Part shown: one piece after another, positions 6,799 through 63,031 of the stretch
How the letters are laid out: each line of letters opens with the position of its first letter
Numbering within the stretch: position 1 is the first letter of the stretch
From: Chiloscyllium plagiosum
Taxonomy: Eukaryota
Direction of reading: 5' to 3'
Length of the DNA: 64,000 nt
Assembly: GCF_004010195.1 (NCBI RefSeq)
Contig: NC_057728.1
Span: 11,097,263 to 11,161,262 of the forward strand
The notes under the pieces: generated by a model
Databases searched by the model: none
What the model saw: only the letters and a program-made list of their open reading frames with translations
Told to the model about the DNA's origin: nothing
Made by a program: the position numbers and the translations under genes

Positions 6799-6994
6799 AG
6801 GTAGATAAGCAGGAGGCTGGAAGAACACAGCAAGTCAGGCAGCATCAGGAGGTGGCGAAGTCAACGTTTCAGCTGAAGTGTTACACCCAAAACGTTGACT
6901 TCTCCACCTCCTGATGCTGCCCAGCTTGCTGTGTTCTTCCAGCCTCCTGCTTGTCTACCTTGGATTCCAGCATCTGCAGGTTTTTGTCTCGAAT
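6799..6994. mobile_element. Palindromic PLE-end element (family A-like, HHR decayed)
   Basis: Inverted arms 6799-6870 / 6889-6960 plus an unpaired tail; degenerate TSD cacgtttatattgcag (6785) / catgttaacattacag (6995). Confidence 0.8.
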
Positions 6995-8017
6995 CATGTT
7001 AACATTACAGATCATACATCAGATCTGTAATGTGCTATCTTTGGCTAATCTGGGGTCATAGCCATTTTCCCCAGTTCCCCAAAAATCTTTAGCTTTGGAC
7101 AATTAATTTGGCTCACTTTCCAACATTGTGGTGTTGACATTAAACAAGTGCAGCTACATTCTGCTGCATTATTCACATCATATATCTGAGAAAGATTTCA
7201 GTTTTGATCCCCCAGTCTGTGTTGAGTTAGTTAATCTCCACCCAGGCTGTGTTTGGGCTACTGAAATTTTCCTAATACTTCTGATTTTTGAGGTGAAATT
7301 CAGCCGCACGGAAGGTTACATTTGTTGAACATCCAGTGATGTGCTGAATGGCCACCAGTACTCAGAACAAGGAATCACATATCAACAGTAGAACATAGAA
7401 CAGTACAGCACAGTACAAGCCCTTCAGCCCTAGATGTTGCGCCGATCTTTGTGACAATGGTCACATCCGACATGAAAAATATCAAAATCTTTCATAACTG
7501 TGACAGGAAAGGAATCAATGCCTTCAAGTGAGGAGACCGGGAAAAAGAATTACAGAAGAAAATTGCAAAGATTTCCCTTTACTGCAGACCCATCACTGCA
7601 ATATTTTTCGAAAATCTGTGTGTAAGTCCAATGTTAATCGTTTCAAGGTATAACGAAGATCGGAAAAATAAAAGCAAAGAAAAAATTCAGCGAGTACTCA
7701 GCAGATCAGGCAGCACCTACGGAGTTACCATTTTGGGACTAGATTACCTTTCTTCTGAGCATTTTGAACAATCTTTATTTAATTTCAGATTTTTGGCGTT
7801 GCAGTTTTTCTTTTTAAAGATTAGGTAGTAATGCTTTCATCCACTGTGGCCAAACCCGCAGTACATCTGCTATTGAAAACAATTAAAACCTTATCGTGGA
7901 AGAAGTGAGCAACACCGACTGATTTGAGGGGAATCAATCAGCAGGAACGCCCTCCTTTGCATACATAATTCATACGTGTCCTTGGGATTGCTTGTCTTAA
8001 ATGTAATTTGGCAATAA

Positions 8018-8345
8018 AGGTTTGGGGGAAAATCCCTTATCCGAAATGCTCGGGACCAACTGGTTTTTGGAATTCAGGATTTTTTGAATTTCGGAATAAG
8101 TGACAATTTGATGGTGAAATTTTTAAAAATCTTACCAAACAGCAGACGCACTGAGTAAAACGGGCCCTGAAACAGAATTGAGGCCTGCCAGTGCTGGGTC
8201 ACGCCCCCACACGTTGCATCTGAGTGACACGCATCGAGTGGGTGTGGAGTTGGGTTAACTGTTTGCACGCCAAACAATCGTGTTAGTGGGAAAAAAAACT
8301 TCACGAAAATCCTTCAGATTTCGGAGCAACGGTCGTCAACCTGTA
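8018..8345. mobile_element. Tigger/pogo-like (MER46-like) MITE
   Basis: cccttatccgaaatgctc near the left end, gatttcgga...tcaacctgta at the right end; internal tccgaaa/tttcgga motifs; CpG-rich. Confidence 0.55.
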
Positions 8346-8634
8346 CTTACACTCTGGCCATATAACAAAACTTAAGGAAGAATTGAGTTTGTGGGAACAT
8401 GTCAAAGAAACATTAATTGCTCGGGAGTGCTAACAGGAACCAGAATGCAGAAATGCTCTGTTTTCTACCTGTGATGTCACAGGTTAAAAACAGAAGGACA
8501 GAATTTGTAGACAGTTGTAATAAAGCCAAGAGGTTCTGAAAGTGAGTGTTCCCTCGCTCTCCTGTGACAACTCCAGCAAAAGACCCATGGAAATGTTGTA
8601 AGGTCATACACTCTACAAAAGACTCAGGAGATGG

Positions 8635-8905
8635 TCATCACTGACTAGCCTAGCTTATCTTACCCATCTTTAATTGCCGTAGACGTCAGTTACATTACTG
8701 TGGAGTTACATGCAGACCAGACCAGGTAAGGACAGCAGCTAATGAAGAACATTAGTGAACCAGATAGATTTTTCCTAACAATTATTTCATCGTTTAGACC
8801 CTTAATTCCAGTTTTTTAAAAAATTTGAATTAATTTCAACTTGCAGCCCCAGAACATTATTTGGGTCTCTGGATTAATAGTCTAGTGATAATACCATTAG
8901 GCCAT
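8635..8905 (-). mobile_element. tRNA-derived SINE (second family), degenerate
   Basis: Reverse-complement similarity to 13378-13695 and same-strand similarity to 41670-42010. Confidence 0.65.
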
Positions 8906-9803: not shown

Positions 9804-9895
9804 TCCTGAAGTAGGGCTTATGCCCGAAACGTCGATTCTCCTGTTCCTTGGATGCTGCCTGACCTGCTGCGCTTTTCCAGCAACTCATTTTCAGC
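9804..9895 (+). mobile_element. Solo tail-less PLE-end element (family A)
   Basis: 14-bp TSD tattaccatctcat at 9790-9803 and 9896-9909; HHR core mutated (ctgaagta). Confidence 0.88.
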
Positions 9896-9998
9896 TATTA
9901 CCATCTCATCTAAACAGCAGCAGCTCTGCCAGTGTAATATCCCTTGTTAGCCGGGTTTCTGTGAATTCTGAACTAATGCTTGATCCCACAACTTTAGA

Positions 9999-10224
9999 AG
10001 GTAAAAACAAGGACTGCAGATGCTGGAAACCAGATTCTAGATTAGAGTGGTGCTGGAAAAGCACTGCAGTTCAGGCAGCATCCGGGGAGCAGATAAATCG
10101 ACGTTTCGGCCAAAAGCCCTTCATCAGATTCCGGATGAAAGGCTTTTGCCCGAAACGTCGATTTTCCTGCTCCTCGGATGCTGCCTGAACTGCTGTGCTT
10201 TTCCAGCACCGCTCTAATCTAGAA
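9999..10224. mobile_element. Palindromic PLE-end element (family A variant) with two opposed HHR motifs
   Basis: 14-bp TSD cccacaactttaga at 9985-9998 and 10225-10238; arms about 10035-10127 / 10133-10224; unpaired tail on the left. Confidence 0.92.
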
Positions 10225-10974
10225 CCCACAACTTTAGACACAGAGCGTAATCAACTGAATCAGAATGAAACAGGAGCGATTCCATTGCAAGGCAATACAT
10301 TGTATCTTAGCTTGCGACACATCGTCAAACAAGAAGAAAAGTTCTTCCACTGAACATCATTCACTAAACTAACTCACTTAATTAAAATAACCTTCAAGAG
10401 CGGGACTAACTCTAAATAAATCACTAAGCCAGTGCTTCCATTTAATATACAGATCATTATCTTTGAAAAACGTGCAAAAATTAACATGAAGATAATGTAA
10501 GCTTTATGAGCCGCTGTACTTGGCCATCAAGACATTGTGCATCAAGACGTGACTAACCCAAACCCAAGGTTACTCATGGCAAGTCAGAGATTAAGCCACT
10601 ATAAGGAGGAGAGGATTGGTGTGGAAGTGATAAGGGATCCACATTTACTGGAAAAACGTGGAAAGATGTAAATGAAAGATTATCTTTAAAGTTGTGTGTT
10701 GTGAACACTCTTCGAATGGTTCCCTGAGAATATTGTCTTCTTCATCAGTCACCAAAAGATACATTAATCAATTTGCACACTTCCTGGACAAGTACACAGA
10801 AAATGAGAGCTCATATTTTTACCCTTGTCTATTTGTTCAAGGTTATGGCCAAGAAATATGTAAAATTTAACAAAAGATTAGCCTAGCTTTCATCTTTCCT
10901 AATTTACTATACATCACTAAATGTACCTACTGTTACTACATGGTTTTGTGCAAATAAACTAGTATAAATTCTGA

Positions 10975-11178
10975 ACTGAAAACAATCAATGCCAGAGATC
11001 ACAGCGGGTCAGACAGTATCGATTGAAAGAAAGCAAGCTAATATTTTACGTCCAGATGGTTCTTCAGAACTAGCTTGCATCTCTGATGAAGGGCCATCTA
11101 GACTCGAAATGTCAGCTTGCTCTCTCACCATGGATGCTGCCTGACTCGCTGTGATCTCGCAGCTGCAGTAATTTTCTC
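10975..11178. mobile_element. Older palindromic PLE-end element
   Basis: gagatcacagcgggtcagacag ... ctgcctgactcgctgtgatctc inverted arms; ctgatgaagggccatctagactcgaaatgtc HHR-like motif. Confidence 0.75.
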
Positions 11179-13695: not shown

Positions 13696-15118
13696 TAAAA
13701 TAGGTTTGTATTTAAATTCCATGGTCAGGATTTTTCCAATCAAAGTTAGAGAATGGCAGGAAGCAACTCTGCTACTTCTGAGGCCGAATTTTCACCATGC
13801 CTCAGGGCGAGTTCTCTCATTTTTGTGCTTCTTACGTCATTATGCTTGAATGCAAGATGCTGGGTGCATTACTCAGCAAATCATGTGGTGCACAAAATGG
13901 AAGTGCTGAACAGAGCAGAGATCTACTGGTGCCATATTTACATCCCGTCTGGACACCACTACAAGCTAGGAACATGTTCAGCCATCACACTTTGAACCTC
14001 CCTTTCCTAACACACTCATGCAACCAACCATCAGTTCAGCAATACCATATACTACTGAGTGACTCCAATTGAGCGTCAGGTTAGCAACTGGCTTATTCTC
14101 ACAGCTATTTCATTTCAAGAAGTCATCACAAACTCCAAATGGCATCATCCATGCAGAAGTTTCATAAGCACTTCACCCGACCATCTCCCCACAAGTGATT
14201 AGCCGCTAGGGACAGAGATTTAACTCCTGTTCTGTTACCAATGCCTCTCATTCCAATATGTTGAATGCTCCATTGTGTGCACAAGCAATTATTAAGGAAT
14301 TTACAAACCGAGGCTGAAGAAATGGAGCGGAGAAAATATATTAACTTCAAACAGATTTTAAAAACTATCACTTTCCACACAATTAGAAGGAGCGTATGTT
14401 GTCCACCAATCACTTATAAAAATCACCACATTTTTAGGTTAGTTTTGAACTTGGTTTTCCATCTGCAAAACAATGATTAAAACTGCAACAAACACATTAA
14501 ATTTCCATCGTCTCGGTTGAGGTGGATTCTCCATTGTAGGTAATCCTATTTAAAGGTGGACCATCATTTTCAAAATGGTAAACAGATCTCCTAACACTGC
14601 GGCCCCCTCATTTTAGTATTACTTTAGGCAACTGCATCCAGTGAGTGTGCTTGCTGAACTTTCTGTGACCCGCCACGTGTTCTCATGGCAGCAGATGGAA
14701 ACAATACTGGATTCTGTTCAGAACTAGGGGTAATAGCTCTGATTACACTGAAGTGCATTACACATGATTGGATACTACGCATGGGAATCCAGGCATAAAT
14801 TACTTTTGTACACAGCTACAGGGTTGTATAAACAGAGGATAAAATCAATCCTGATTAATTCAATTTTTCCACACACAACGATGCTCACCGGTAGCGACAA
14901 CAAACACGACCAATACTGGCGGCTGGCTTTTCAATCCTGCTTGGGCCAGAGTCTGAGGATGGTGGGGCTGACGACTAACCAATGAGTGAGCAAATGCCTC
15001 TGCTCTTTGTGGAGGCAGAATCAGCCCACAGGGAAAGACCAAACATAAAACACAATCAGAGCTGAAAATGTGTTGCTGGAAAAGCGCAGCAGGTCAGGCA
15101 GCATCCAAGGAGCAGGAG

Positions 15119-15154
15119 AATCGACGTTTCGGGCATGAGCCCTTCTTCAGGAAT
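15119..15154 (-). ncRNA. Minimal type I hammerhead ribozyme motif (sense to ADAMTS20 pre-mRNA)
   Basis: Reverse complement reads AUUC-CUGAAGA-A-GGGC(UCAU)GCCC-GAAA-CGUC-GAUU. Confidence 0.75.
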
Positions 15155-15158
15155 GAGC

Positions 15159-15194
15159 CTTCCTGAAGAAGGGCTTATGCCCGAAACGTCGATT
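15159..15194 (+). ncRNA. Minimal type I hammerhead ribozyme motif
   Basis: CUGAAGA-A-GGGC(UUAU)GCCC-GAAA-CGUC; palindromic ACGU stem III; predicted cleavage after 15190; activity untested. Confidence 0.75.
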
Positions 15195-15771
15195 CTCCTG
15201 CTCCTTGGATGCTGCCTGACCTGCTGCGCTTTTCCAGCAACACATTTTCAGCTCTGATCTCCAGCATCTGCAGTCCTCACTTTCTCCTATAAAACACAAT
15301 CAGTAAGGTTTAGAAATGATCGCTGGACTGATCCTCCACTTTGAAGTTCACAAGCGAGTGGGATCAATAAAAGGGTTAGGCTCACACAGGTTATGCTGGC
15401 GTTTACTTCTGGGGGAGTCATCTGAAAATTTTCAGAATCACTAACAGCCTGAATGAGACCGATTAAATTTTCCAATCGGCTTCCACATTCCAGAACCGGA
15501 AGGGACACCCCCTACACTGACAGGGCTGGATGGGGGTGTGGTGGGGTTGGCAGTGTGGTGTGTAGGCTTGAGAGTGTCCTTGCCAGCTTTGATATGCAGG
15601 AATTGCCATAGGTTGTCCATTGGCTGCACACCTCCCCCACCCTTCCACCCCTCCCCCTCACCAATCACTTCCATTCGTGATGGTGGCCTGACTGCTGAGT
15701 CCATCTTTATAAAGTGATCGCTTAAAAACAGTTGGTGAGAGAACACATCCATAATGAACCATTCTCTCTGT

Positions 15772-15894
15772 ACAAAATTAAAAATCACACATCAGGTTAT
15801 AGTCCAACAGTAGCTTTCGGAGCGCTGCTCCTTCATCGAGTGGTTGTGGGTTTTTAACTTTGTACTCCCCAGTCCAACACCAGCCTCTCCAAAT
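15772..15894. mobile_element. Internally collapsed palindromic PLE-end element (family B)
   Basis: 12-bp TSD cattctctctgt (15760-15771, 15895-15906); same sequence as 26560-26795 with deletions. Confidence 0.85.
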
Positions 15895-17975: not shown

Positions 17976-20138
17976 AGGTTTGTGTAAAGATTTGTAGCTC
18001 GGGTTGTGGTTGTGGGTATGTTCGCCGAGCTGGGAAGTTGATTTGCAGATGTTTTGCCCCTTGTCTAGGTTACACATTCAGTGCATTCGAGCCTCCTGTG
18101 CTGTACTGTCTCTTCTGGAATTTATGTGGTTCCGTTTCTGCTGTTTCCGACTGTTCTTTGTAGTAGCCAGCATATTGGGCCTTGGTCAATGTGCTTGTTG
18201 ATAAGAGTCCGTGGCTGAGTGCCATGCTTCTAAAAATCCTCTAGCTTTCCTCTGTTTAGCTTGTCCTATGATTGTTGTGTTGTCCCAGTTGTCATCTGTG
18301 TATGTCAATCAGGGATAGCTGGTCGTGGCATTTAGTGGTTAGTGAGTGTTCGTGGTTGCAGATTGTTAGTTGTCTGCCTGTTTCTCTTAGACAGCGTTTC
18401 ATGCAGTCTTTGCATGGAATTCTGTAAATAACGTTTGTCTTGCACATGATGTGTATAGGGTCTTTTGTCCTGGTGAGTTGTTGTCTGAGCATGGTTCTCG
18501 GTTTATGGGCTGTTATGGATCTGAGTGGTCAGATAAGTCTGGTTGTCAGTTTTCTTTTGTGTAAGGTAGCCTGGCTAGTGAATTAGGTCATGGGGTGCAG
18601 GTGAACTTGAGGGGATATCCATTCTTGGCAAATACTCTGGAGAGGTGTTCTTCTTCCCTTTTTAGATTAGATTCCCTACAGGGTGGAATGTCCTAGTTCC
18701 TCTCAAGCTAGAAGACATCTGACTGACTTCCTCCATCCCGCCAAGCTTCCACTGCTCTAACTTGGATAGATTAGAGCATTTTTAGATTAGATTCCCTACA
18801 GGGCGGAAACAGGCCCTTCAGCCCAGCAAGTCCACACCGTCCCTCTGAAGAGTAGCCCACCCAGACCCATTCACCTACTCCCTACTAATGCACCTATCAA
18901 TATGGGCAATTTAGCATGGCCAATTCACCTAACCTGCACATCTTTGGACTGTGGAAGGAAACCGGAGCACCCGGAGGAAACCCACGCAGACACAGGGAGA
19001 ATGTACAAACTGTACATAGACGGTCACCCGAGGCTGGAATCGAACCCGGGTCCCTGGCACTGCGAGGCAGCAGCGCTAACCAATGAGCCATTGTGCCGGG
19101 AAGGGTGCAGTGTGTTGTAGCCCTTTTGAACAGGTCCTAACGCAGCTCCTCTTGCATGTGTTCGGGGGGTTGCTGATGCAATTCAGGTCCTTGTCAGTGT
19201 GAGTGGCTTTCCTGTCCACCTTTGTGGTCCATTCACCATTCTGTGTTCTTTGTACCATCACATCTCGGAATGGGAGTTGATTGTTGGTTCCTTTCTCTCT
19301 TGTAAATCTGATCGTTGAGAGTATGGTGTTGATAATCCAGTGTGTGACCTCAATATCTGTTCTCTTAATGATAACAAAAGTGGCATCTATGCATCTGATC
19401 CAGAGTTTGGGTTGGATCTTTGCATCACTGCTTCTGCTCTGAGCCCAGAGATGGGTGAGCCCATAGGTGTCCCATTGATCTGTTCATGTATTTGGTTGTT
19501 GAATGTTAAGTGTGTTGTCAAGCACAAGTCTAGTACTTTGAGTATGCAGTCCTTGATGATAGGTTCCCTGTCGTGTTGTCTGTTCTGCCGGTCCAGGACA
19601 TTGGCTATTGTCTCTCTGACTAGGCGTTTGACAATTGATATGAACAGTGCCATTACATTGAATGAGATCATTGTCTCGTCCTTGTCTATGTCTATGTTCT
19701 TGATGTTGTCTAGGAATTCCTGTGATGATTGAATGGAGTGTTTGCATCCGCTAATAAGATCCACATCCACAAACAGCATCTAGCCACTAAACACCACGAC
19801 TAGCTGTGCCTAGTAGCCACACACTCAGATGACAAGGGTCACAAATTCGACTGGGACAACACAATGATCATAGGACCAGCTAAATAGAGGACAGCATGGC
19901 ACTCAGCCACAGACTCCATCAACAAGCACATAGACCTAGACCCAATATACCGGTCACTACAATGAACAACTGGAATTGGCAATTGGAAGTAGCAGGAACA
20001 GAACCAAATAAATTCCAGAAGACACAGTACAGCAGCACTTCACAGGAGGCTCCAAAGCGCTGAACATGTCACCAAGACAGGGCACAAAACATCTGCAAAT
20101 CAACTTCCCAGCTCAGCGACCATACCCACAACCACGAC
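17976..20138 (-). mobile_element. Penelope-like retrotransposon (Poseidon-like), 5'-truncated, with an inverted duplicate of its 3' end
   Basis: RT motifs ETMISFNVMALF and QINGTPMGSPISG; GIY-YIG-like NVIYRIPCKDCMKRCLRETGRQL; plus-strand 19775-20137 mirrors about 17995-18350; TSD aatcattgatggttttca (17958) / aatcatcgatgtttttca (20139). Confidence 0.9.
18781..19097 (-). mobile_element. HE1-type SINE, full length, nested in the Penelope element
   Basis: A box tggctcattgg and B box ggttcgattcc on the minus strand; (TCTAA) tail. Confidence 0.92.
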
Positions 20139-21789
20139 AATCATCGATGTTTTTCAGATGCTAACTGAGAGGAAATCTACTGTTTCTGCCAGTTACACTA
20201 TTTATTTTTCAAGAGCAATATTTACTCACACATTGGAGTATTAGGAAGTTTAAATTATTCAATTATATTTCCAAGAATGAGTTAAGGAGACAGCAGTGAC
20301 AAAATTAATTGAATCTGATATAATATAAAAGAAATAAACAAACAGAAAGATTCTATGCAGAGCTTGTTTTCCAAACGTGCTTAATTTTGGCAATGTCTTA
20401 ACAGTGTTTAAAATACAGACTGGATTAATGTTCCTGAAAGTAGAAAGGTGGGGAAGGAAATCAAAAATAAATCCTTACACAGTCAATTGTCAAGCCTCAA
20501 CAACCGCAATTTCCGAAGGAAAGAAAAGACAGATTTTTGTCTTGAACAATGAAGAACTGCTTTTTTAAAAAAATTCAGTTCCACTCGGAAGAGATAAATG
20601 AGTGACTGCAGTCAGAAGGAGCTCAGGGCAGGCCTGGAGGACTCCAACATTCACTTTGTGCCTCACGGATCACACCACCATTCAAAGGTTCTCGCTCTCT
20701 TTCTCTGTTAAACTTATCAGTTTGGCAGTTACTTCAACTATGCTATGGGTTCCAAGCCAGCATCACTTTATTTATATTCCTTGGCTCCCATTGCATTAAC
20801 ACTGCCCCAGGAGAAAACGCTGTATATTTCTGCTCACACAGGATAGCTGAACTCCCTTCACACTAGAAAACATTCCAAGCACGTAGAAAGAGTAGCATCT
20901 GCAATCTCCAAACATTTAAATCAACTCCAGCTCAGTTTCACACAGGTTCAGGATGGCTAAAGTAATCACACTAGTCATATTAGAACTAGGTTTGACATAG
21001 CACAGGATTTAAGCTACAAGAAAATAATTTTGTCAGTGTACCATAGCTCAAGCCAGGAAAACCTAAAAGATCAGTAAGCTTTAAGCATAAATACCTTGGA
21101 TTTGGGAGTCAATGCAAATTGAATGGCACTTGTCATTCATTCCCTTTACAGTTGCCCACAGATGCTTTGTAATCATTTCAGCAGCAACTACTGCTAATTG
21201 GGATGATTCAACGCAGTTCCATGTGTGTGTGATCACGCACAGGTATGTGAGAGTGACTGAGCATTGCGGGTGGGAGAGAGATTAAAGAATCCTCATTGAA
21301 CTTGACAGAGTCTAAGCCAGGAATATTTCATTCAATACAAAATATTGTACAGAAGGGAAAATAAAGTGGAAGGTAAGAAAAATGAAACGTATCGATGCAA
21401 AGAACTATAAGAGACAAAAACCAAAATGAAAAGCAATTGAACTCTACATAAACAAAATTAAAATTTCAGTGTAAGAGGTTGTCTTCCAATTATTAATTAG
21501 TTATCAATAATGCAACTGAAGTTTAACTAACAGATAAGTATAGCAACGTCATGCCTTGAATGTATTTTAAAGATGAGTCTATCAGTCAGGTATAGTCCAG
21601 TGAAGATTGCGGAGGGCCACAGTAAATTAGACAGCACCTTCCCGATTTACATCTTATTGCCAAATTTACTTCTCAATACTAATGAGCACCAATATCCTCA
21701 CTGTTACTCTCACTGTAAAATTTGTGTCTCATCACAACTACAGATGTACCCTTCAAAAACTGTTGAAACCTTTGCACTCAACCTTATTT

Positions 21790-22534: not shown

Positions 22535-22660
22535 GGATGAAGGGCTCCTGCCCAAAACGTCGATTCCCCTGCTCCTCGGATGCTGCCTGACCTGCTGTGC
22601 TTTTCCAGCATCAAACACTCTCGACTCTGATCTCCAGCATCTGCAGTCCTCACTTTCACT
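22535..22660 (+). mobile_element. Solo PLE-end element with tail (family A), HHR decayed
   Basis: gatgaagggctcctgcccaaaacgtcgattcccctg...ctccagcatctgcagtcctcacttt. Confidence 0.85.
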
Positions 22661-26260: not shown

Positions 26261-26497
26261 CAAACAAACAGAAATAACTGCAGATACCATAAATCAGAAA
26301 CAAAAACAGAAATTGCTGGAAAAACTCCGCAGGTCCTGCAGCATCTGGGGAGAAAAATCAGAGTTAATATTTTGGGTCAAGTGACCTTTCCTGTCACCAG
26401 TTCTGAGGAAGGGTCATTCAACCTGAAATGTTAACTCTGATTTCTCTCCACCGGTGCTGCTAGACCTGCGGAGCTTTTCCAGCAATTTCTGTTCTTG
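26261..26497. mobile_element. Palindromic PLE-end element (family C)
   Basis: TSD tctcccacctata (26248) / tctcctacctgta (26498); inverted arms around ctgaggaagggtcattcaacctgaaatgtt. Confidence 0.85.
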
Positions 26498-26559
26498 TCT
26501 CCTACCTGTATGTTAACTCTCAGTAGACATCAAAGATGAGATTTGGGCTTGAATGTGTA

Positions 26560-26795
26560 TCATGATGTGGAGATGCCAGTGTTGGACTGGGATGTCCAAA
26601 GTTAAAAATCACACAACACTAGGTTATAGTCCAACAGGTTTATTTGGAAACACCAGCTTTCGGAGCAACGCTCCTTCATCAGGTGGTTCAGTACCTCCTT
26701 CATCACAACCACCTGATGAAGGAGCAGCGCTCCGAAAGCTAGTGCTTCCAATTAAACCTGGTGGACTATAACCTGGTGTTGTGTGATTTTTAACT
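26560..26795. mobile_element. Palindromic PLE-end element (family B) with two opposed HHR motifs
   Basis: 11-bp TSD ttgaatgtgta (26549-26559, 26796-26806); arms 26597-26688 / 26707-26798; left tail. Confidence 0.92.
26710..26744 (+). ncRNA. Minimal type I hammerhead ribozyme motif
   Basis: CAC-CUGAUGA-A-GGAGC(AGC)GCUCC-GAAA-GCUA-GUG; stem I CAC/GUG; palindromic AGCU stem III. Confidence 0.78.
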
Positions 26796-30137: not shown

Positions 30138-30319
30138 TGCCACTGTACTTTGGAAGCCAGCGCACGTTTGGCGGCAAGCCATTGATGTTAAAATGCTTCC
30201 CATCAAACTCTGAGCATTGCTCTTCCCTGAAGTCCTTCCTTCCCTTCGGACAAGGCTCTGTGTTACAGGATCGGAATTTCATTCTGCGACCCACACAATA
30301 CTTCCCACCATTTCTGGGT
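30138..30319 (-). CDS. ADAMTS20: ADAMTS20 exon: TSR1 end / Cys-rich domain
   Basis: aaacag|A CCC AGA...GGC A|gtaagt; [60 protein letters not shown]; 182 nt. Confidence 0.95.
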
Positions 30320-30914
30320 CTGTTTGGGACAAAAGCCAACAGCTTATGACAGAAGGAAATACATGATTCGGATGACTTGGATAGTAGGCAAAATCTCAAT
30401 CTCGTGTCAATAAAAATTACCGCCTTACATGTCAGGTGCTGGAATGTCAAAGGGGTAACACCAAGAACTTGTTTTCCATTAAGCAAAAAACTTAAATGTA
30501 TTATTTTCTCAGTCGAAATTTATGAGGTGCACAAGATCATTAATCTGAATTTATCCACTTTATTAAACAATATACAGACTGCCAAATTAACTTTCTTCAA
30601 TCACCATGAGAAAATGCTGGAAAATCTCAGCAGGTCTGGCAGCATCTGTGGCCTTATGGTTTCAGATTCCAGCAACCACAGTAATTTGTTTTTAACTTTC
30701 TTCAATAATTTGCTGTCCAGTTATAGGGAATTACACGCAAGTCTCAATATCAGCTGATAATCTGACAGAATAACTTCTCCACTGAAGACACAAAATGCAG
30801 CCATCTACCAGTAGCTGTCCCATTGGGTGCAGTCAACCACTGGCATGGCATGATCCTCATTAGAGATGCACACCAGCATTCTTTGATCCGCAAATTCTAC
30901 TGACTCACTAAGTG

Positions 30915-37215: not shown

Positions 37216-40121
37216 CTTTAGAATATTTTTCAGTACCGGTGAGCAGTCATAATTTACTTCTTGAGCAGAAGGATGAACATTGTTTGATTAATTTTCCCTT
37301 CAGTTTTGTGACAACATGCATGAATAGGTCAGAGACAGGAGCTGCTACCAAATTTTCCTTTTCCTCTGGACTTGCCCAGTGAGGGGCCATTGAACTGGAA
37401 TATAAGAGCACCTCAAATACACATTACACACAGAACTCTCTACATATCCCAGATACGTGCATATCCCAGTTAAATATCAACAATTCCAAAGACCAAACCA
37501 ATGGAGAGAGTGACACTATTGAGGTTCTGAGCCCAATATGACTTCTGTTCGGAACAACACTTCAGGCGAACACTAGCTCTGCTCTCTCTCCCCACAGATG
37601 CTGCCATGCCTGCTGAATTTTTATTTCACTTTCTGCTTTTATTTCAGATTTTCAGCGACCGCATTTTTTTGTTTTGCCAAAGCATTGGCTGTGGGTCATG
37701 AATCGAGGTCATGCTAATGCACTGGAATGCAGAACATCCAAGAGTTTCCATCGCATTGATCAGATCATTGGAGTGTTGTTTTGTTTGACAGTAAGCTCAA
37801 AAAAATCTGCTCGTGTGTAGGATGAGAGATAATTTCTGGATGGCAAAGCCACTGGCTAACTTTGAGAATTCTCAAAGCCCAGATTACGCTCAGCTAACAG
37901 CAACAAATCATGAAGTGAGTGGGGGAATCCCTTCCTAGCCACTTCTGAAGGTCTCAGTACAGACTTAGGAATCATACCACATTCCAAAATTACTACCCAC
38001 TGATATCATTGTACATCCTGTATTGTTAAAAATGGTTTCATTGGTTAGGAATGATGCAATACTGAGGAAAGACTCCTCTGGGTCAACAGTATGGGAAGTC
38101 ATATTTAATGTAGTACTGAAGGGCTTTGTTTATGATAGGCAGACTTTAGGTTCTTCCCTGTGCTGAATCCATATGCAACTCTGAGTTCCACAGTGGCCCA
38201 ATCACACTACGCATCCACTTCTTAATGGAGGTGAGCATGATATTGCTTTTATACAACAGAACCACCTCTAAACAGCACTGGGTTGTTTGTACTAAAGGAT
38301 TGTTTTACCACTGGACAAAGGGAAAGAATGTAGAAAATTCCTGAGTTATTAGCTGCAGGTGAACTTGGGCCAAGAGAAACATCTCCCCCAATTGATTAAC
38401 GCTATGTGAACAATTGGGTCATCTTTAGTTTTTGACACCAATCATTAATTATCTCAGCTAAGAATTCTGTGACCATCTCAAAGCATTCTATGATAATGAA
38501 TGAGTAGAATTTTCACATTTTAACCATTTCAGCGGATGCAAGAGATTTTGCCAGACCATTTCAACAGTTCAGTTGTGAGCAAGTCCACCTCTCCCCAATC
38601 GTTCTATACTCCTGGATTTGGATATTGCTGAAAAGAATTCACATTTTGCCAAAGCTTTTCAACTTGCACTCATGAGGAAATGTGTAAGAAATGCTGAAGC
38701 AAAACAACATTTCTGTTGCATGAGAGGAGAGTGCTGATTGGTTGGCAAGTGGTCGCTGACTGTTCGAGGCACTGGTATAGAGAATGTACCAGGAGAAAGT
38801 GAGGTCTGCAGATGCTGGAGATCAAAGTTGAAACTTTATTGCTGGAACAGCACAGCAGGTCAGGCAGCATCCAGGGAACAGGAGATTCGACGTTTCGGGC
38901 ACAGGCCCTTCTCCATAGCCTACTTATAATGACCCAAAAGTGCCCTGGCAGTTAGCTGTAGGAAAGTGTAATTGAGGCTAAATGAATAGTGAAATTGGAA
39001 GTGTTGGAAGAGGGTAAGAAAGGCAAAGCTGAGAACAGAAAGCCTAGATTGGAGAGTAGGAGTGACAGAAGAACAAATCAGATAAATTAGTGGGAGAAAT
39101 TGTGGAATCTAGATGACTTTTAACATGGCGCATTGAGGCCTTTTCGATTCAATTTTATCTTTTCTGGTTCTGAGCAACACTGGCAACTTAATTCTAATTA
39201 ATGCTAAATGTGAAAATAATGCTCAAGGAAAATGCGACTCACGACCGTACACCACTAAAATCTAATTATAATTTCATTTGGGCAGATATCCAGGGTTTAA
39301 TAGAAATTACATCAGAAAGTTGGAACACTTGATAATATTATCAGGGACAGCTTATAGCAAAGTCCTGCTTTATTTTTCATATTGATTCTGAATTTGTCTA
39401 CAATAACAACTGAATATTGGACACTATTCAAAGGGAAATTATGGTTCAGTCTTTCTAAGAGATCAACTGATGGAATAGTTGAAAACTACACGTCTGTCTT
39501 AATTCCAAGAATTCAATTATCTACAATCACACAATCAGCATTCAAGACATTGAGTCTGTTCTTGTTGCCAATACTTAAAGTCTAACTTGATGATTGCATT
39601 GTTTCTTTGTTCGCCCTATTTGTGTCAGTGGGCAGTTCGGTAATGTGACATGTTTGGTGCTCATGAATAAACCAGCTTTTAATCTTGTAACTTTAGCATC
39701 TACCAGCAAGGTGAGACTTGCAAGGATAGTTGTGACATTTTAATCGGTGTATTCTTTTATACCCTAACATGATTTTTATTGCTGCATTCAATATTTTGTC
39801 TGCAATGATCAAACAATTAGGAGCTCTTAATCTATATTCTTCTCAGGAAGGAAGGACTAAGCAAATTCTGAGCAAAGGTCACTGGACCCGAAACATTAAC
39901 TTTGATTTCTCTCCACAGATGCTGCCAGACTTGGTGAACTTTTCCAGCAATTTCTGTTTTTTATTTCCTGATTTGAAGCATCTGCAGTGCTTTCAGCTTT
40001 TTTTATTCTATATTCTTCTACATTGTATTTTGATGGATGTTCAACAGACACTCAAGATCAAGTTAATCAATTTAACATTGCATCACCATAATGAAAGTAA
40101 CAATCCTGTTAAAATTTTATT

Positions 40122-40424
40122 TTAGATTAGATTCCTACAGTATGGAAACAGGCCCTTCAGCCCAACCAGTCAACACTGACCCTCCAAAGAGTAACACACC
40201 CAGACCCATTTCCCTCTGACTAATGCACCTAAAACTACAGGTAATTTAGTATGGCCAATTCACCTAACCTGCACATCTTCATGGGAGGAAACCAGAGCAT
40301 GCAGAGGAAACCCACGCAGACACAGGGAGAATGTACAAACTCCACACAGACAGTCGCCCAAGGCTGGAATTGAACCTAGGACTCTGGTGCTGTGAGGTAG
40401 CAGTGCAAACCACTGAGCCACCAT
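40122..40424 (-). mobile_element. HE1-type SINE inside the cargo
   Basis: tRNA head and TCTAA tail; carries substitutions and a small deletion relative to other copies. Confidence 0.9.
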
Positions 40425-40464
40425 ACCAGAATCCTTATCTTCTCCTGCTGAACACTCTCTGCTC

Positions 40465-40500
40465 ATTCCTGAAGAAGGGCCTGTGCCCGAAACGTCGAAT
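40465..40500 (+). ncRNA. Minimal type I hammerhead ribozyme motif
   Basis: AUUC-CUGAAGA-A-GGGC(CUGU)GCCC-GAAA-CGUC-GAAU; perfect 4-bp stem I and 4-bp stem II. Confidence 0.8.
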
Positions 40501-41669
40501 CTCCTGTTCCCTGGATGCTGCCTGACCTGCTGTGCTGTTCCAGCAATAAAGTTTCAACTAGAGAATGTACCAGTTAACTGACGATTGACAGTTCACTTCC
40601 AAGCTTTGTCTAAGACTGTCAGTCAGGTTTACAATATGGTGTACTTGCATGTACTGGAAGCTACATTTAATAAGAAACAGTGCTCTGATCTTTACACACA
40701 GAAAGCTCATACAGACACACTATGCATACTTCAACTCAATAAAATAACTGGCAGTTTTGCTGAAGTTTCTTTCTCATGAAAATGCCTTGATTAATTTGAA
40801 TTAACCCGTGGTTAAACGTAAACAAAGCTTAGCAGTTAACTATCCATCATCATTAACTGGTGCTTTCGCCATGACAACACCACTACCAATTAGAATCCAT
40901 TGTGAGCCAATCAGCACTGTCCTCTCATACAGTATAAAGATTGTTAGCTTTTTACTTTGGTATTTATTGTAAATTCTCTTGATGGGTACAAGGCAAAGAG
41001 CTCAACAAAAGCAATCTTTGTTCCAGCAACTCCCTGAAGCATTGACAGGATAGTATAAATGTTTTCCACATAAAATATCACAGGCCAAAGCCTATCCTGC
41101 AAGACAGCTCTATGCTTAAAATGTCAAATAGAAGATGAGGTAGTTAGTTAGTAGTGATTAACTGGTGCAAATCTCATTTGAAAACTCTAATTTTCAGGAA
41201 AGAAGAAAAATCCAAGAGGGATAAGAAAAAGATGTCACAGTTTTGAAACCCTGGAAAAGGATAAATTAATCAAAGAGTCTAACTTGCGCACAGTGAAGAT
41301 TTGGGGACGAGAAGGAATTTACCAAACACTGTACCTCACGGTTAGCAATGGATAAGAGGGAGAAAAACCAAAGTATCAACAGAACACAGAGTCAAGGAGG
41401 TTTCCTCTGGAAAATAAAAGGTAAAATCTCGAGATGTGTCACAAATTATATATTAGACAGCACATTTTTTTCCCTTGAATCATGCTCAGGAATGCAAGAT
41501 ATTTGAAGAGTCTTTCCAGACATATGAGTTGTGACCATGTTTCAGACTGACTACAGAAATATGGAATATTTAAACACAAGGATAAGGATAAGGACTTAAC
41601 ATTTTAGATATGGAGGACCTGCGAGTTTAGGTGAAGGGTAAGCAAGGCCAGATGCAGCATAGGGTACAG

Positions 41670-42546: not shown

Positions 42547-43447
42547 GGACACCCCTTCCTCCTCACCTTCCATTCCACTCATCTCCGGAAAATATTTCCA
42601 CCACCTAAAAATAGACCTCACCACCATAAATATATTTCCCTCCCCACCCCTATCTGTGTTCCACAGAAACCATTCCCTCCAAGACTCCCTAAGCCCCATG
42701 ACCCCCACCAACCAACTTTCCACACCCAGCACCTTCCTTTGCCACCACAGGAGGTGTAAAACCTGCGCTTACACCTCCCCGCCTCACCTTCTTCCAAGGC
42801 CCCAAAGGATCTTTTCACATTCGGCAGAGATTTTCCTGCATATCCATCCACCTCATCTACTGCGTCCGTGGTTCTCAATGTGGTCTCCTCTACACTGGGG
42901 AGACAGGACGCCAACTCGGGGAGCTTTTCAGAGAAAATCTCTGGGACACATGCACCAAACAACCCACCGCCCTGTGGCCATCCATTTCAACCCCGCCTCC
43001 CACTTCCCCAAGGACATGCAAGTCCTGGGCCTCCTTCACCAAATCCAAGCCACCCGACACCTGCAGGAAGAAACCTCATCTTCTACCTTGGGACCCTTCA
43101 ACTACACGGCATCAACACTGGCTTCACTAGTTTCCACATCTCCCCTCCCCCCCACATCATCCCAGATCCAACCCTTCAACTCGGCACTGCCCTCGACTTA
43201 TCAATCTTCCTTCCCACCTATCTGCTCCACCCTCCCCACCGATCTATCACAATTACCCCCCCACCTGCATCTACCTATCACTTTCCCAGCTACCTTTCCC
43301 CCACTCCCACCCTCCTATTTATCTCTCAGCATCTGCCCTCCCCCTACATTCCTGATGAAGGGTTTATGCCCGAAACGTCGATTCTCTTGCTCCTCCAATG
43401 CTGCCTGACCTGCTGTGCTTTTCCAGTGCTACATTGTTTTTGAGTTG
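42547..43447 (+). mobile_element. Penelope-like retrotransposon 3' part (Neptune-like): Cys-motif linker, GIY-YIG endonuclease, 3' UTR and HHR end
   Basis: Frameshifted TFLCHHRRCKTC, HLIYCVRGSQCGLLYTGETGRQLGELFRE, PVAIHFN, NLIFYLGTLQLHGIN; ends in the family A repeat; probable TSD agccttgagga (42536) / agccttgggga (43448). Confidence 0.9.
43348..43383 (+). ncRNA. Minimal hammerhead ribozyme motif at the PLE 3' end
   Basis: CUGAUGA-A-GGGU(UUAU)GCCC-GAAA-CGUC. Confidence 0.75.
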
Positions 43448-43526: not shown

Positions 43527-43600
43527 TGCCCGAAACGTCGATTCTCCTGTTCCTTGGATGCTGCCTGACCTGCTGCGCTTTTTCAGCAACACATTTTCAG
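43527..43600 (+). mobile_element. 74-bp solo tail-less PLE-end fragment (family A)
   Basis: 15-bp TSD ctaagaggaacatta (43512-43526, 43601-43615). Confidence 0.88.
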
Positions 43601-53354: not shown

Positions 53355-53755
53355 GTCACTATAGGCCATGCATGACGGACAATAACACTGTTTCTGTGGA
53401 CCAGGCAGTGGCACTGATTGCAGCACTGCCCTTAAAACAGAAATTTCTGGAGAAACTCAGCAGGTCCGTGGAGAAAAAGCATAGTCAATGTTTCGGGTCC
53501 AGTGACCATTCTTCAAAACTGCTCTGTGCTTGTAGGACAGACAGCAATGTTATGACAGGCAACAGCACGCCAACTGTAGGCCATGCATGATGGACAGCAA
53601 CACTTGACTGTAGTCTACAGCAGCACTGTTACTGTAGGACATGGATACATCTGCACCGTGACTAGCGTTTAGGGGACAGACAACAGTCTATCACTGTAGG
53701 GGGTGTAGAAGTCAACGGATATCCTGAAGGACAGACAAACAGAACACTGGCTATC
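53355..53755. repeat. Degenerate minisatellite (unit resembling actgtaggacatggacagcaac), interrupted by a family C fragment at about 53433-53520
   Basis: Recurrent actgtagg / ggacagacagca / acagcaacact motifs. Confidence 0.55.
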
Positions 53756-53789
53756 CGCTCTGATCAAAACAACACGACATGATAACTCA

Positions 53790-53985
53790 AGAAAAACTGA
53801 ATCAATTGTGGACGCTGTAAATCAGAAACCAAAACAGAAATTGCTAGAAAAGCTCAGCAGGTCTGGCAGCATCTATGGAGAGAAATCAAAGTTAAGAGTT
53901 GAGAGGAAGGGTCACTCGACTTGAAACGTTAACTCTGATTTGCCTCCACAGATGTTGCCTGACCTGCTGAGCTTTCCCACAACAA
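53790..53985. mobile_element. Palindromic PLE-end element (family C)
   Basis: aaagctcagcaggtctggcagcatct / agatgttgcctgacctgctgagcttt arms; gaggaagggtcactcgacttgaaacgtt. Further family C remnants near 7660, 30605, 31160, 37545, 39865 and 56460. Confidence 0.8.
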
Positions 53986-58524: not shown

Positions 58525-59772
58525 TTTTTTGGGAAGAAATTGTCAGGTCCCTTACTGAGAAGTTTGTATAATCAACAGCCACAGGTGAGGTGCTGGATTA
58601 TTGGAGGTTGGCAATATGGTGCCATTATTTAAGAAAGACTGTAAGAAAAAGCCAGGAAACTATCAACTGGTACGTCATATGTCAATGGTGGATAAGTTGT
58701 TGGAGGGGATTCTGAGGGACAGGATTTACATGTATTTGGAAATGTAAGGACAGATGAGAGATTGTCCTTATGCATGGGAAATTGTGTCTCACTAACTTGA
58801 CTGAGTTTTCTTTAAAGAGATGACAATTGATGAAGGCAGAGTGGTAAAAGTTGTCTATATGGACTTCAGCAAGCATTCGACAAGGTTCTGTATGGTGGAC
58901 TGGTTCGTAAGTTAGATCACATGGGATTCAGGGGAGAGGTCAACTTGATTCAAAACCGGCCTGAAGGTAGAAGACAGGGTGTGGTGGTGAAGGGTTGCTT
59001 TTCAGACTGGAGGCCTGTGACCAGCAGCATGCCACAAGGATCAGTGCTGGGTTCACTGCTTTTCATCATTTATATAAATGATTTGGATGTGAACATAGCA
59101 GGCATGGTTAGTAAGTTTGCAGATGACACCAGAATAGTGGAGAAAAGTACCTCACAGTACAAAGAGACCTTGATCAGATGGGTCAATAGGTTAAGGAATG
59201 GCAGATGGAGTTTAATTTAGATAAATGTGAGATGTTGCATTTTGGGAAGGCAAACCAGGGCAGGACATATACACTTAATGGTAGAGCCCTGGTCAGTATT
59301 GCCAAACAAAAAGATATTGGAGTGCAGTGCATAATTCCTTGAAAGTGGAGTTGCAGGTAGATGGGGTCACAAAGATGTTTGGCATTCTTGCCTTCATTGG
59401 TCAGAACATTGAGCATAGAGCTTGGGATGTCATGTTGCAGCACGAACATTGGTGCGACCACTTTTTAGAATACAGCATACAATTCTGGTCGGCCTTCTAC
59501 AGGAAGGATGTCATTAAACTTGAGAGGCTGGAGAAAAGGTTTACAAGGACATTGCCAGGACTGGAGGGTTTGAGCTATAGGGAAAGGCTGAATAGGCTGG
59601 GGCTTTTTCCCCTGAGTATCAGAGGCTGAGCAATGATTTAAAGAGTTTATAAAATCAAAGGGTTATGGATAGGGTGATAAGCCAAGATTTGGAGATGCCA
59701 GTGTTGGACTGGGGTGTACAAAGTTAAAAATTACATAACACCAGGTTATAGTCCAACAGGTTTAATTGGAAG

Positions 59773-59807
59773 CACTAGCTTTCAGAGTGTTGCTCCTTCA
59801 TCAGGTG
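59773..59807 (-). ncRNA. Minimal hammerhead ribozyme motif (sense to ADAMTS20 pre-mRNA)
   Basis: Reverse complement CAC-CUGAUGA-A-GGAG(CAACA)CUCU-GAAA-GCUA-GUG; stem II opens with a G-U pair. Confidence 0.62.
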
Positions 59808-60007
59808 ATTATGGAGGGCTCAATCCTAACACACAGAATTTATAGCAAAAAATTTACAGTGTGATGTAACTGAAATTATACGTTGAAAAATTGATTGTCT
59901 TTCTTAAGACTTAACAGACAATCAATTTTTCAATATATAATTTCAGTTACCTCACACTGTAAATTTTTGCTATAAATTTTGTGTGTTAGGATTGAGCCCT
60001 CCACTAC

Positions 60008-60042
60008 CACCTGATGAAGGAGCGATGCTCCGAAAGCTAGTG
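60008..60042 (+). ncRNA. Minimal hammerhead ribozyme motif
   Basis: CAC-CUGAUGA-A-GGAGC(GAU)GCUCC-GAAA-GCUA-GUG. Confidence 0.78.
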
Positions 60043-63031
60043 TGCTTCCAATTAAACCTGTTGGTCTATAACCTGGTGGTGTGTGATTTTTAACATGATA
60101 AGCCAAGGCCTTTTTCCTATGTTGGGGGAGTCCAAAACTAGAGGGCAGAGGTTTATGGTGAGAGGGGAAATTGAGAGGGCAACATTTTCATGCAGAGGGT
60201 GGTGCGTGTATGGAATGAGTTACCAGAGCATATGGTGCAGGCTGGCGCAATTACAGCATTTAAAAGGCATCTGGGTGGGTTGATGAATAGGAAGGGTGCA
60301 GAGGATATGGGCCAGGTACTGGCGAATGGAACTAAGTCAGATTGGGATGTCTGGTCACTGCGGACTAATTGGATGAAGGGTCTGTTTCCATGTTGTATGA
60401 CTTGACAAATACTTCTGACAAGAACAGTGACCTTGATATTCACTGTAGTGTCGGTTCAGAGCAGGAGGAATTCTGGTCAAAAGTGAGTGATCCCTCACAA
60501 TACTGAGTTTTTAAGTAGGAGGTATGCTTGAATTTATTTCCCATTCAGCTGCTAATTTGGCTGCCAATGACTGACAAGGCGACTGAGTAGCAGGGGTAGG
60601 AGCAGGATACAGAATGCTCTGGAGGAGGTTGTCCAACATAATTACAGGGCCCAGTGATTGCAAGAAAATCAGGAAATCTGATGGATCATGTGGGGAAGTT
60701 CATGACGGGATGCTGTATTTAGGGATGATTTTGTGGCAAGATTATAAGGAATCAATTTACAGGTTTAGATTTTGTACACTCTATACTCTCTACTCCACAT
60801 GCAGTGCTGTAAAGGCATCTACTCTATGGTCTTCCTCCCTTCCTCCCTTCCTACTGAATTTCCTAGCATTCAGTTGAAAAAACACAAAACCGTGCTGTAA
60901 TAGGGACATATAGCTTCTTTCTACAATTTCAACAACTGTCTGATATCTAAAGAGCTAATCAGTCCACGTGTACCTTATCCAACCTCCATTACAATTGCAT
61001 GTGGATGGCTTTCAAGGTGGCTGGGTTTGAAATTAATTCCAAGCCAAATCAAGCCCACCCATTACTGAGAGCTAACATTGTCCCCGTTTGGTTTGACTTG
61101 TGCTCCTAGCCATCTCTATTGTTTCCTCCAGGCTTGCAACCTGCTGAGAATTCTACATCCCTCCAGTTCTGGCCTTTGTTCATCTCTGGTTCATTTCATT
61201 TCTCCACTGACAGTTGTGTCTTTAACTACCTCGGCTCTAATCTCTGCAATTTCTAACTCGGTCCTCCTGGCTTCTCCATTGCAATTAGCACTGAGCCATT
61301 TGAAGCAGTACTGACACATTCCAATGACATTGAGGACATTTCACCTGATGATGTCCACTTATTGCCTCAGGTACTCTACTCTCTAGTCTCCTATGACATT
61401 GGCAATGAAATGCAAATCTGGAGCATAAGATAAAGGAGATCTGCAAGTAACTTTTTTTTAAAAGACATAAATGTAGCAGCTATTCAATGGTATCTCGTTA
61501 GTAGATGCAGGATACAAGAATGCTTGGGTCAATCATTAATAATGAAAATTACTGACCCATGAAATCTACACTAATGAACATGTCTCAATGTCAGCAGCTG
61601 TTGATCACATTGTACAATCTTGCAACTCTGAGGTTCTGGAAAAGAAATAAAATCCAGCGCTCACATGAATCCATCCATCCACTTATCCAACTACACACCT
61701 CAGAGAGAAGTTACTGTGGGATGGTCGTCTTGCTTGCTCATTGGATAACGAGTGGGAACCCCGCTCTATTATCGCGAGGAGATCTGACATAATCATTAGG
61801 AATCAGGAACTTATCTGGATAGCATCAGAAGTCCCGTTTCATTCAGCCCTGAGTACGGCAGAGATCCCATCCCCAAGACGTTCCCACCAATTAGAGGTCA
61901 GCAATTCTCCAGTTTCAACAGCAGAACCAAGAGTGGTGCCCATTGCCAGAGCTACACTGTAGGAGAGATCCCTAGATAGAGAGGCAAGTGTGGGAAGCAG
62001 TGGGATTAGGAGGAGGATGACTTTAAGGGTCTCAATTGGACTCCGCAAAGGCAGGGTGCTCTCCAACCTTCCTGCCTGTGATTTTCTAGGAATGGAGTCA
62101 AGAGGTTGGTTGGGTCCCCAGCCCATACCCTTCCTACTAAATCAAATGGTTCCCTCCTCATCTCCTGGGGAATTACAATTGGCCTCAGCAGGCACTGGGC
62201 TGGGGAAAGGAAAGGAAGAGGCTTCGGGAAGGAGGACTCAGCAAGGAGCTCTGCTCCAGATTGCAAAGCATGACCTTTATTGGAAAATGCATTTACATAG
62301 CTGCCAGAGGACAGGTAGGGACCTGGCTGCAATACCATCTAAAATTACTGCTTTTAATACCGAAGGCATGTTTTTCAAATTGGTTTATTAAATAATATTG
62401 AGGCATTAGGGATAGGTTCTCAGGCAAACAGTAAAGGATAGAGATTGGCATCTCTGGGAGAGCAAGGAAATTGGGTTGGGAAGGAGGAAGAAAAAGTTGA
62501 ATGAAACAAAATGAATAAAGATGCAGTGGATAGTTTGCAGGCATTATGGTTCTATTACAATTCCATTATAATTCTATTAACACAGGAGGTGGCACTGTGG
62601 TTATCAAAACTATCCCTCAAAGACTGACTGAAACATTAGAGCAATAGTTGAATCAAACTTAACCTTGCCATATCTGTGCTCACATTAATTCATTTCCTTA
62701 GCATTTCTTTTTGTGAACAACTGTACATACACAACTCTTGACCATAAGAAATAGTTCTAGAATTCTTGCACGTGCTCAGCAGCATAAAATGTTCCCATCA
62801 TATCGAATATTAGTGTATGCCGAAATGCCACTCTACAGGGAGAAAAATTCATTCATGGAGTGTCACCTCTCACAATGCTGCACAGACTTCCATGAATCCC
62901 CTGGGTTCAGACAGCACTGTTGTCCCATACCTGTGTGGCCCTCATATAATTTCTCCCCTCTTGGTTTTATATAGTCGCCTGCATAACAACATTTACATGT
63001 TTACTAAGCAAAAAGTTATAAAATAACTCAC

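Follow-up and report, generated by a model that had tools for sequence, protein, structure and literature searches.

The analyzed window is a 64-kb stretch of the genome of the shark Chiloscyllium plagiosum (contig NC_057728.1, positions 11,097,263 to 11,161,262), and the subject of this report is its population of short palindromes with hammerhead motifs, which are assigned to Penelope-like elements (PLEs). By its sequence, the window is vertebrate intronic DNA in an ADAMTS-like gene: a minus-strand exon at 30190..30321 matched ADAMTS13 chains at E 2e-6, and ADAMTS-5 chains as well. A retroelement frame at 19387-19776 is 72-75% identical to two proteins labelled Chiloscyllium punctatum. Twelve inverted pairs of arms were found. 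Nine had been listed in a preliminary description of the window, and eight of these were recovered as local inverted repeats by self-blastn (E 1e-15 to 1e-132), while the pair at 15772 was seen in the alignment. The additional pairs are 30602-30691, a palindrome that had been overlooked, 38793-40558, and 17976-20139. All counts rest on this one window, in which pairs occur at a density of about one per 6 kb, and 23 stretches with arms of families A, B, and C make up 5.5% of the sequence. The identity between the two arms of a pair ranges from 78% to 100%, and therefore the events are spread over a long time. Each palindrome is probably a single, cut-short insertion of an endonuclease-positive PLE, and it was very probably built anew from PLE RNA at the time of insertion. 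The insertions are listed below (TSD, target site duplication; C3, a position in the hammerhead core; ORF, open reading frame; RT, reverse transcriptase; UTR, untranslated region).

6799..6990, pair: head-to-head, related to family A; left arm tail-less, right arm with a tail of 30 nt (6961-6990); arms 93% identical; deletions in both hammerhead copies.
9804..9895, plus strand: solo family A arm, tail-less; TSD 14 bp (9790-9803 / 9896-9909); core damaged.
9999..10224, pair: family A palindrome with left tail; TSD 14 bp (9985-9998 / 10225-10238); arms 92% identical; no junction filler; both motifs damaged.
10972..11178, pair: old family C palindrome; arms 78% identical; TSD weak; 8-nt junction filler equal to the reverse complement of 11033-11040.
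15060..15288, pair: young family A palindrome; right tail 35 nt (15254-15288); TSD 15 bp (15045-15059 / 15289-15303); arms agree at 93 of 94 positions; minimal hammerhead intact in both arms (C3 at 15150 on the minus and at 15163 on the plus strand).
15772..15894, pair: collapsed, family B; right arm reaches scarcely beyond the tail; TSD 12 bp.
17976..20139, pair: family D, insertion of a Poseidon-type PLE with ORF remnants of the RT and the GIY-YIG region; tailed minus-strand arm 1.8 kb, tail-less plus-strand arm 0.37 kb; arms 87.5% identical; flanking repeat agrees at 15 of 17 nt.
22535..22660, plus strand: solo family A arm, tailed; TSD not found.
26262..26498, pair: family C palindrome with left tail; left arm stops within the core; arms 83% identical; TSD weak.
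26560..26795, pair: family B palindrome with left tail; TSD 11 bp; arms 91% identical; right motif intact (C3 at 26713), left motif with a G at the cleavage position.
30602..30691, pair: collapsed, family C, without hammerhead; TSD 15 bp.
38793..40558, pair: very young, family A; left arm tailed, right arm tail-less; TSD 15 bp (38778-38792 / 40559-40573); arms identical at 84 of 84 positions; about 1.5 kb of older host DNA enclosed.
39844..40006, plus strand: older family C copy, tailed, flanked by a 13-nt repeat of its own and located inside the cargo of 38793-40558.
42590..43428, plus strand: 3' end of a Neptune-type PLE, with linker and GIY-YIG remnant (to about 43128), C/T-rich UTR, family A hammerhead (C3 at 43352), and arm.
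43527..43600, plus strand: solo family A arm, begins in loop II, tail-less; TSD 15 bp.
53434..53521, minus strand: solo family C arm.
53790..53984, pair: family C; left arm terminates close to the predicted cleavage site; right core damaged; TSD not found.
59687..60095, pair: family B palindrome; TSD 12 bp; arms 91.5% identical, running about 100 nt upstream of the core; both motifs intact by descriptor (C3 at 59804 on the minus and at 60011 on the plus strand).

The origin of the arms could be traced most directly for family A, which comprises eight loci and the related pair at 6799, with arms 80-99% alike. The arm at 43349, which is 91% identical to the arm at 15150, follows directly upon a GIY-YIG remnant in the broken frame 42590-43128. 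A 66-residue piece of this frame gave 499 protein matches at E up to 0.001. The GIY-YIG domain was present in all five relatives that were scanned, two of which also contain the RT domain RVT_1, and two proteins with GIY-YIG and RT (P0042 and P0136) match the remnant. A cysteine cluster occurs in a second frame of the remnant and in the relatives P0021, P0042, and P0008. A CX2-5CxxC linker upstream of GIY-YIG marks the Neptune and Nematis clades (PMC8557442). Because the arm follows a GIY-YIG remnant whose relatives bear RT, GIY-YIG, and the cysteine-rich linker, the family A arms are, by sequence relationship, the pseudo-long terminal repeat (pLTR) of a Neptune-type PLE; the choice of Neptune over Nematis is based on vertebrate distribution. 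The same ORF link refutes for family A a reading as miniature inverted-repeat transposable element (MITE). Family C has its 3' half and tail in common with family A, whereas family B is unrelated to A in sequence. The assignment of B to the PLEs is tentative and based on anatomy, and that of C on anatomy together with its kinship to A. Thus, the proposed PLE origin, pLTR identity, minimal hammerhead, and distinction from DNA transposons were supported, for family A directly and for B and C through anatomy only. A word-based protein search with the GIY-YIG frame gave no match, and Pfam missed the remnants in the window. Among viral and metagenome contigs, the family A pattern had no matches; a 16-nt family B pattern was found at two viral loci, which were taken as chance matches.

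Family D matched the proteins P0001 and P0002 with its RT, and is tentatively regarded as Poseidon-like because P0002 does not contain the cysteine-rich linker. In P0001, the N-terminus corresponds to the pLTR itself, which has likewise been described for the anole element, and a SINE-like insert (SINE, short interspersed nuclear element) interrupts the insertion at 17976-20139. The family D insertion carries ORF remnants and follows the same plan as the small palindromes, which therefore represent the shortest members of a known continuum of PLE insertions; over all events, the arm length varies from about 40 nt to 1.8 kb.

An exact TSD flanked seven of the 12 pairs, with lengths of 11, 12, 12, 14, 15, 15, and 15 bp, and three solo arms (9804, 43527, and 39844) had TSDs as well. 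In a control search with 300 random position pairs, a score of at least 11 was reached twice and a score of at least 8 in 14 cases. Only short imperfect flanking repeats, at the score that was reached by these 14 of 300 random pairs, were present at 26261 and 10975, and the TSD search at 6799 and 53790 found none. For the nine palindromes described before, the length range of 11-15 bp was confirmed, but the TSDs were exact in five cases (14, 15, 12, 11, and 12 bp) and not clear in six, as had been claimed. The starts at 9999, 15060, 15772, 26560, and 59687 and the end at 60095 exactly adjoin TSDs. A fixed TSD length, which together with termini matching a DNA-transposon superfamily had been named as a refuting observation, was not found. 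Exactly one tail was present in all 10 clear pairs (p about 0.001 if ends are independent at 0.5); the pairs at 10975 and 53790 were too decayed for this count, and neither has two tails. The tail of family A is 30-36 nt long, in agreement with the one-sided tail proposed earlier. The tail-less ends of family A lie within 2 nt of one alignment column in six of six cases, and those of family B are spread over about 5 nt. Several tail-less ends share 1-5 bases with the TSD, which accounts for the slack in family A. In summary, the window contains the combination of an inverted 5'-truncated copy, a one-sided tail, and a TSD.

The junctions between the two arms differ in all 12 pairs. They range from no filler (9999) via 2 nt (15060) and a micro-hairpin (59687) to 1.5 kb of host DNA (38793-40558). 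The junction filler at 26560 includes an 11-nt copy of the arm, while a 5-nt match in the filler at 26261 was too short to be counted as templated. Templated filler is a mark of polymerase-theta joining. Because all junctions differ, some with templated filler and one with host DNA, every insertion probably generates its own palindrome. Within the window, this answers a check that had been suggested, namely whether loop sequences are shared across loci and the palindrome replicates as a unit: a shared junction, as expected for a self-replicating palindromic family, was not found, albeit with low statistical power. The host DNA within 38793-40558 is not a later addition, because it contains an older copy of family C, whereas the two flanking arms do not differ at any of 84 nt; for the first 915 nt of this cargo, no second copy was found in the window. 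The arm at 40465, which had been described as a solo copy, turned out to be one arm of this TSD-bounded inverted pair, the other arm being 38793-38915 on the far side of about 1.5 kb of host DNA. The stretches 40434-40468 and 43315-43351 share a motif at the same offset, and the right arm of the cargo pair thus seems to extend about 35 nt upstream. As this native upstream sequence seems to be included, the right arm was not cut at the hammerhead edge. The assignment of the nine palindromes as free of cargo does not apply to 59687, which has about 100 nt of extra upstream sequence per arm.

The inner ends were analyzed for all cases in which they are defined by fold-back or TSD (26 ends; solo arms without TSD were left out). 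Fourteen of them are located from -10 to +4 nt relative to C3, or 16 if 6799 folds at C3 with deletions, and one is located near the cleavage site. Fold-back close to the hammerhead core, which had been described as the usual case, was confirmed, but as a tendency. At 6860-6905, the left arm apparently is missing precisely stem II, with a GAA repeat on either side of the gap, as though the hairpin had been skipped by the polymerase, and the fold-back of both arms may sit at C3.

Next, the hammerhead motif itself was analyzed. A strict descriptor yielded seven hits in the window versus two in 300 dinucleotide shuffles. These seven hits are copies of two families (A and B) and hence not independent, and therefore covariation between families is the independent evidence for a hammerhead. 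Stem II reads GGGC/GCCC, GGAGC/GCUCC, and GGGUC/GACCC in families A, B, and C, the helix III palindrome is ACGU or AGCU, and position 17 is C, A, or U. The covariation of stems II and III reported earlier was thus verified, and stem I was found to covary as well (AUUC/GA(A/U)U, CAC/GUG, and AGUU/AACU). The motif follows the minimal type I plan, CUGANGA-N-stem II-GAAA, palindromic helix III, UH, and helix I. A MAFFT alignment of the motif was out of register at GAAA and was excluded from the pair counts. No intact copy of the family C motif occurs in the window. In Rfam, the minimal motif had no hammerhead match; the 15 weak hits (14 microRNA families and one snoRNA) were all below the gathering score. 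Going by the covariation, the minimal hammerhead is real.

Within the palindromes, the motif would hardly be able to act. Both arms are intact in two of the nine palindromes (15060 and 59687), in contrast to the claim of a hammerhead on each strand. In the predicted folds of 15060, 26560, and 59687 as a whole, the core has a pairing probability of 1.0 on both strands, and in the other pairs with recognizable core the value is 0.5-0.8. In such a model, the ribozyme should not form in a palindrome transcript, in which the antisense arm would always be transcribed first. For three isolated motifs, the predicted dimer fold is possible but lies 5-9 kcal/mol above the predicted minimum; dimer cleavage by minimal hammerheads has been reported to occur at low rates (PMC6765202). 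A class of double-hammerhead mini-elements, as proposed in the preliminary description, could therefore not be upheld: most members do not have two intact motifs, the motif is predicted to be unable to fold within the hairpin, a common junction does not exist, and the same plan is found with arms of 0.1 to 1.8 kb and with host cargo. The differences between the arms of four pairs comprised 2 of 48 core sites versus 23 of 296 sites elsewhere (p 0.55), and thus there is, at the little power of this comparison, no sign of core selection after insertion. An excess of differences was found in loop II, with 6 of 14 loop sites versus 19 of 330 other sites (p 0.0002). Three of the six fit CpG decay, and the sole difference in the young pair at 15060 is located in loop II. 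The loop II differences at 15150-15175 and 26670-26725 may stem from two source RNAs, a micro-inversion of the loop, or CpG decay.

These results, i.e., TSD-bounded single events, family A arms from a PLE, one tail per event, a fixed tail-less end, and unique junctions, can be combined in the following mechanism. The PLE protein would nick both target strands 11-15 bp apart, and each nicked 3' end would prime reverse transcription on element RNA. The anole element PAc indeed cuts and extends both target strands in vitro (PMC11167929). Priming would occur at two start sites 30-36 nt apart, one per strand, giving rise to one tailed and one tail-less arm; with PAc, two internal start sites on the RNA bound the tail in vitro (PMC11167929). 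End-joining would then link the two cDNAs in head-to-head orientation, accompanied by trimming, by templated filler, or, in one case, by host DNA. We consider this joining of two primed products somewhat better placed than snap-back. Priming would be internal, about 90-130 nt downstream of the hammerhead, and a transcript that begins just 5' of the hammerhead would be a complete template. Because priming is so close to the hammerhead and synthesis would run off at the 5' end of the transcript, stereotyped stubs would result. That the RNA 5' end causes the pile-up of inner ends has in our view an even chance. PAc product length tracks the RNA 5' end in vitro (PMC11167929), transcription of the D. 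virilis Penelope starts inside the pLTR, 46 nt before an intron (PMC2377424), and the 3' end of this intron abuts the hammerhead at helix I (PMC4209133). A dedicated master element for the small palindromes would not be needed. The hammerhead would be a passenger from active parents, selected there, as the covariation suggests, and buried and decaying in the stubs, and the small palindromes are read as dead-on-arrival insertion products.

Several observations weigh against this mechanism. The PAc start site is the same on both strands (PMC11167929), so that the strict occurrence of one tail per event is not explained by PAc alone. The start of the element transcript near the hammerhead edge is presumed by analogy. 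The offsets of the inner ends were read by eye and the null distribution (uniform over 200 nt) is arbitrary, though the pile-up is far from chance. The short pairs at 15772 and 30602 may owe their size to later shrinkage. In 8 of 10 readable pairs, it is the tail-less arm that extends further upstream, a bias without statistical significance (p 0.11) and no more than a hint; this count includes family D and 6799 and becomes 8 of 9 if 6799 is taken as symmetric. The power of the finding that all 12 junctions differ is limited by the few pairs per subfamily in one window, and the comparison of the core with the remaining sites was too small to exclude mild selection. A tblastn search of the window with 152 PLE proteins revealed no ORF remnant beside family B or C arms. 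Furthermore, self-priming on an antisense template explains head-to-head junctions according to Arkhipova et al. (PMC3846280), and this is compatible with the window.

The latter leads to the first alternative, in which the origin from a PLE is the same, but the inverted arm arises by snap-back self-priming on cDNA or antisense RNA, and endonuclease resolution accounts for the asymmetry of the tail. Snap-back has been published for rotifer Penelope elements (PMC3846280; for the tail, PMC8557442), one tail per event follows from it naturally, and the perfect micro-hairpin centres at 59687 and 6799 as well as the fold-back fillers at 10975 are in agreement with it. However, snap-back of a tailed cDNA predicts that the tail-less arm starts downstream, and the reverse was observed in 8 of 10 cases (weak, p 0.11). 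In addition, the 1.5-kb host insert and a direct-repeat filler would fit the joining of two free ends better, and the tail corresponds to two RT start sites in vitro (PMC11167929). Snap-back is thus possible but rather doubtful. Less probable, and in our opinion unlikely, is that the two arms were copied from two RNAs that a dimeric PLE protein had paired via the palindromic helix III, the "ribozyme" being a template-pairing signal more than a cutter; helix III would have a role like that of the retroviral dimer initiation site. The idea arises because the arm differences gather in loop II, which argues against a single shared template. If it were true, the shark genome would be a very large natural record of pairing partners and of element transcription start.

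The remaining alternatives fare worse. The small palindromes could descend from more extended inverted PLE insertions whose centres were removed later through deletions driven by the hairpin, as the collapsed appearance of 15772 and 30602 and the internal deletions of 6799 might suggest; yet the very young pair at 15060 (1 difference in 94) is already short, the TSD-bounded solo arm at 9804 starts at the same edge, and a preference of deletions for the hammerhead edge would not be expected in three families, which makes this explanation quite unlikely. We regard as highly unlikely a dedicated non-autonomous palindromic element, similar to a MITE, that bears a hammerhead on either strand and is transcribed and retrotransposed as a whole. 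Size and plan are similar across many loci, inner ends cluster, and non-autonomous PLE derivatives are known (the retrozymes of bioRxiv 10.64898/2026.07.22.740005 and Chlamys derivatives), but junctions differ in all 12 pairs, both motifs are intact in only two of nine palindromes, the core is fully paired in the hairpin, solo arms end at the same places, and arms vary from about 40 nt to 1.8 kb. Cleavage by the hammerhead would account for the conservation of the motif with covariation and for the left arm of 53790, whose end is at most about 2 nt away from the predicted cut. We consider it extremely unlikely that cleavage set the inner ends: arms would be without core, whereas most have retained it, with ends about 27-37 nt upstream of the expected position, just one of the 26 inner ends fits, and catalytic mutants left the insertion of PAc unaltered in vitro (PMC11167929). 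A MITE of a DNA-transposon superfamily would also be short, palindromic, TSD-flanked, and non-coding. This explanation has practically no chance, because the TSDs vary from 11 to 15 bp, the tail makes the termini unequal, the arms are homologous to a PLE end, and solo arms have TSDs; neither the fixed TSD length nor the inverted repeats at both termini that characterize a MITE were found.

The favoured mechanism, a cut-short PLE insertion, was compared with known systems. Insertions of endonuclease-positive PLEs contain a head-to-head inverted 5'-truncated copy, a 30-40 bp tail at one end, a short TSD, and a palindromic junction, and unrelated DNA captured between solo pLTRs has been described (PMC3846280, PMC8557442). 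All these features, including captured host DNA, are shared by the shark palindromes, which differ in that most events contain no ORF, that the pairs are as dense as about one in 6 kb, and that inner ends pile up at the 5' edge of the hammerhead; in the available parts of these two papers, such a pile-up was not found stated. The TSDs of 11-15 bp are longer than the 8-10 bp of rotifer PLEs (PMC3846280). The minimal hammerheads of metazoan PLEs have, as here, a type I core with a bulged base before stem II and a G-C first pair, a palindromic 4-nt helix III, and a short helix I (PMC4209133). The same paper reports dual motifs on opposite strands 100-700 bp apart, compared with 5-30 nt here (about 200 at 59687), and describes the motifs as mostly single and derived from truncated PLEs; sharks are not named in its accessible text. 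In PAc, a Poseidon element of the green anole, the two start sites bound a tail about 120 nt downstream of the hammerhead and both strands are extended; these data were obtained in vitro and for the Poseidon clade, whereas family A is of the Neptune type, and the main text of PMC11167929, as far as available, does not discuss inverted products. The non-LTR retrozymes (bioRxiv 10.64898/2026.07.22.740005) are non-coding, derived from pLTRs, and hammerhead-bearing like the shark palindromes, but they are head-to-tail tandem repeats, while the arrangement here is head-to-head, with ribozymes predicted to be unable to fold, or solo. In twin priming of L1, both target strands prime and an inversion with an end-joined junction results; the arms copy different parts of the RNA, whereas both shark arms copy the same part. 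Taken together, hammerhead pairs on opposite strands, the inversion of pLTRs, the tails, and the capture of DNA are already published, and the stubs fit a known kind of PLE insertion. Curators have been warned of inverted pLTRs (PMC8969392), while the accessible part of PMC5753468 contains nothing on palindromic PLE ends. No literature on small shark palindromes or on the hammerhead-edge pile-up was found, with most subscription papers and the supplements outside the scope of the search; the supplements of PMC4209133 and PMC11167929 may show such copies.

The arrangement itself is thus of little surprise; it is useful for tests of the way in which PLEs form inverted ends. The inverted pLTR and tail features have been called undefined (PMC8557442). 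With dense and short TSD-bounded events, the two outer ends and the junction are all contained in 250 bp. A genome-wide table of such events could separate two-primer joining from snap-back, reveal where the RNA 5' end lies, and tell if the arms derive from one or two RNAs. Hairpins of this kind can be confused with MITEs or with precursors of microRNAs, and each gives rise to a long double-stranded stem in the host pre-mRNA.

Further repeats and retroelement remnants were observed in the window. A direct tandem duplication of about 150-170 bp at 58213-58530 holds a decayed family C arm and flank. At 22913-24142, two inverted fragments that by eye resemble long interspersed nuclear elements are 65% alike across about 450 bp; they are unrelated to the palindromes and were excluded from the set. 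The second half of the frame 47452-47979 resembles by eye the C-terminal end of another non-LTR element, without a Pfam match, and Pfam identified an RVT_1 remnant at 58834-59217.

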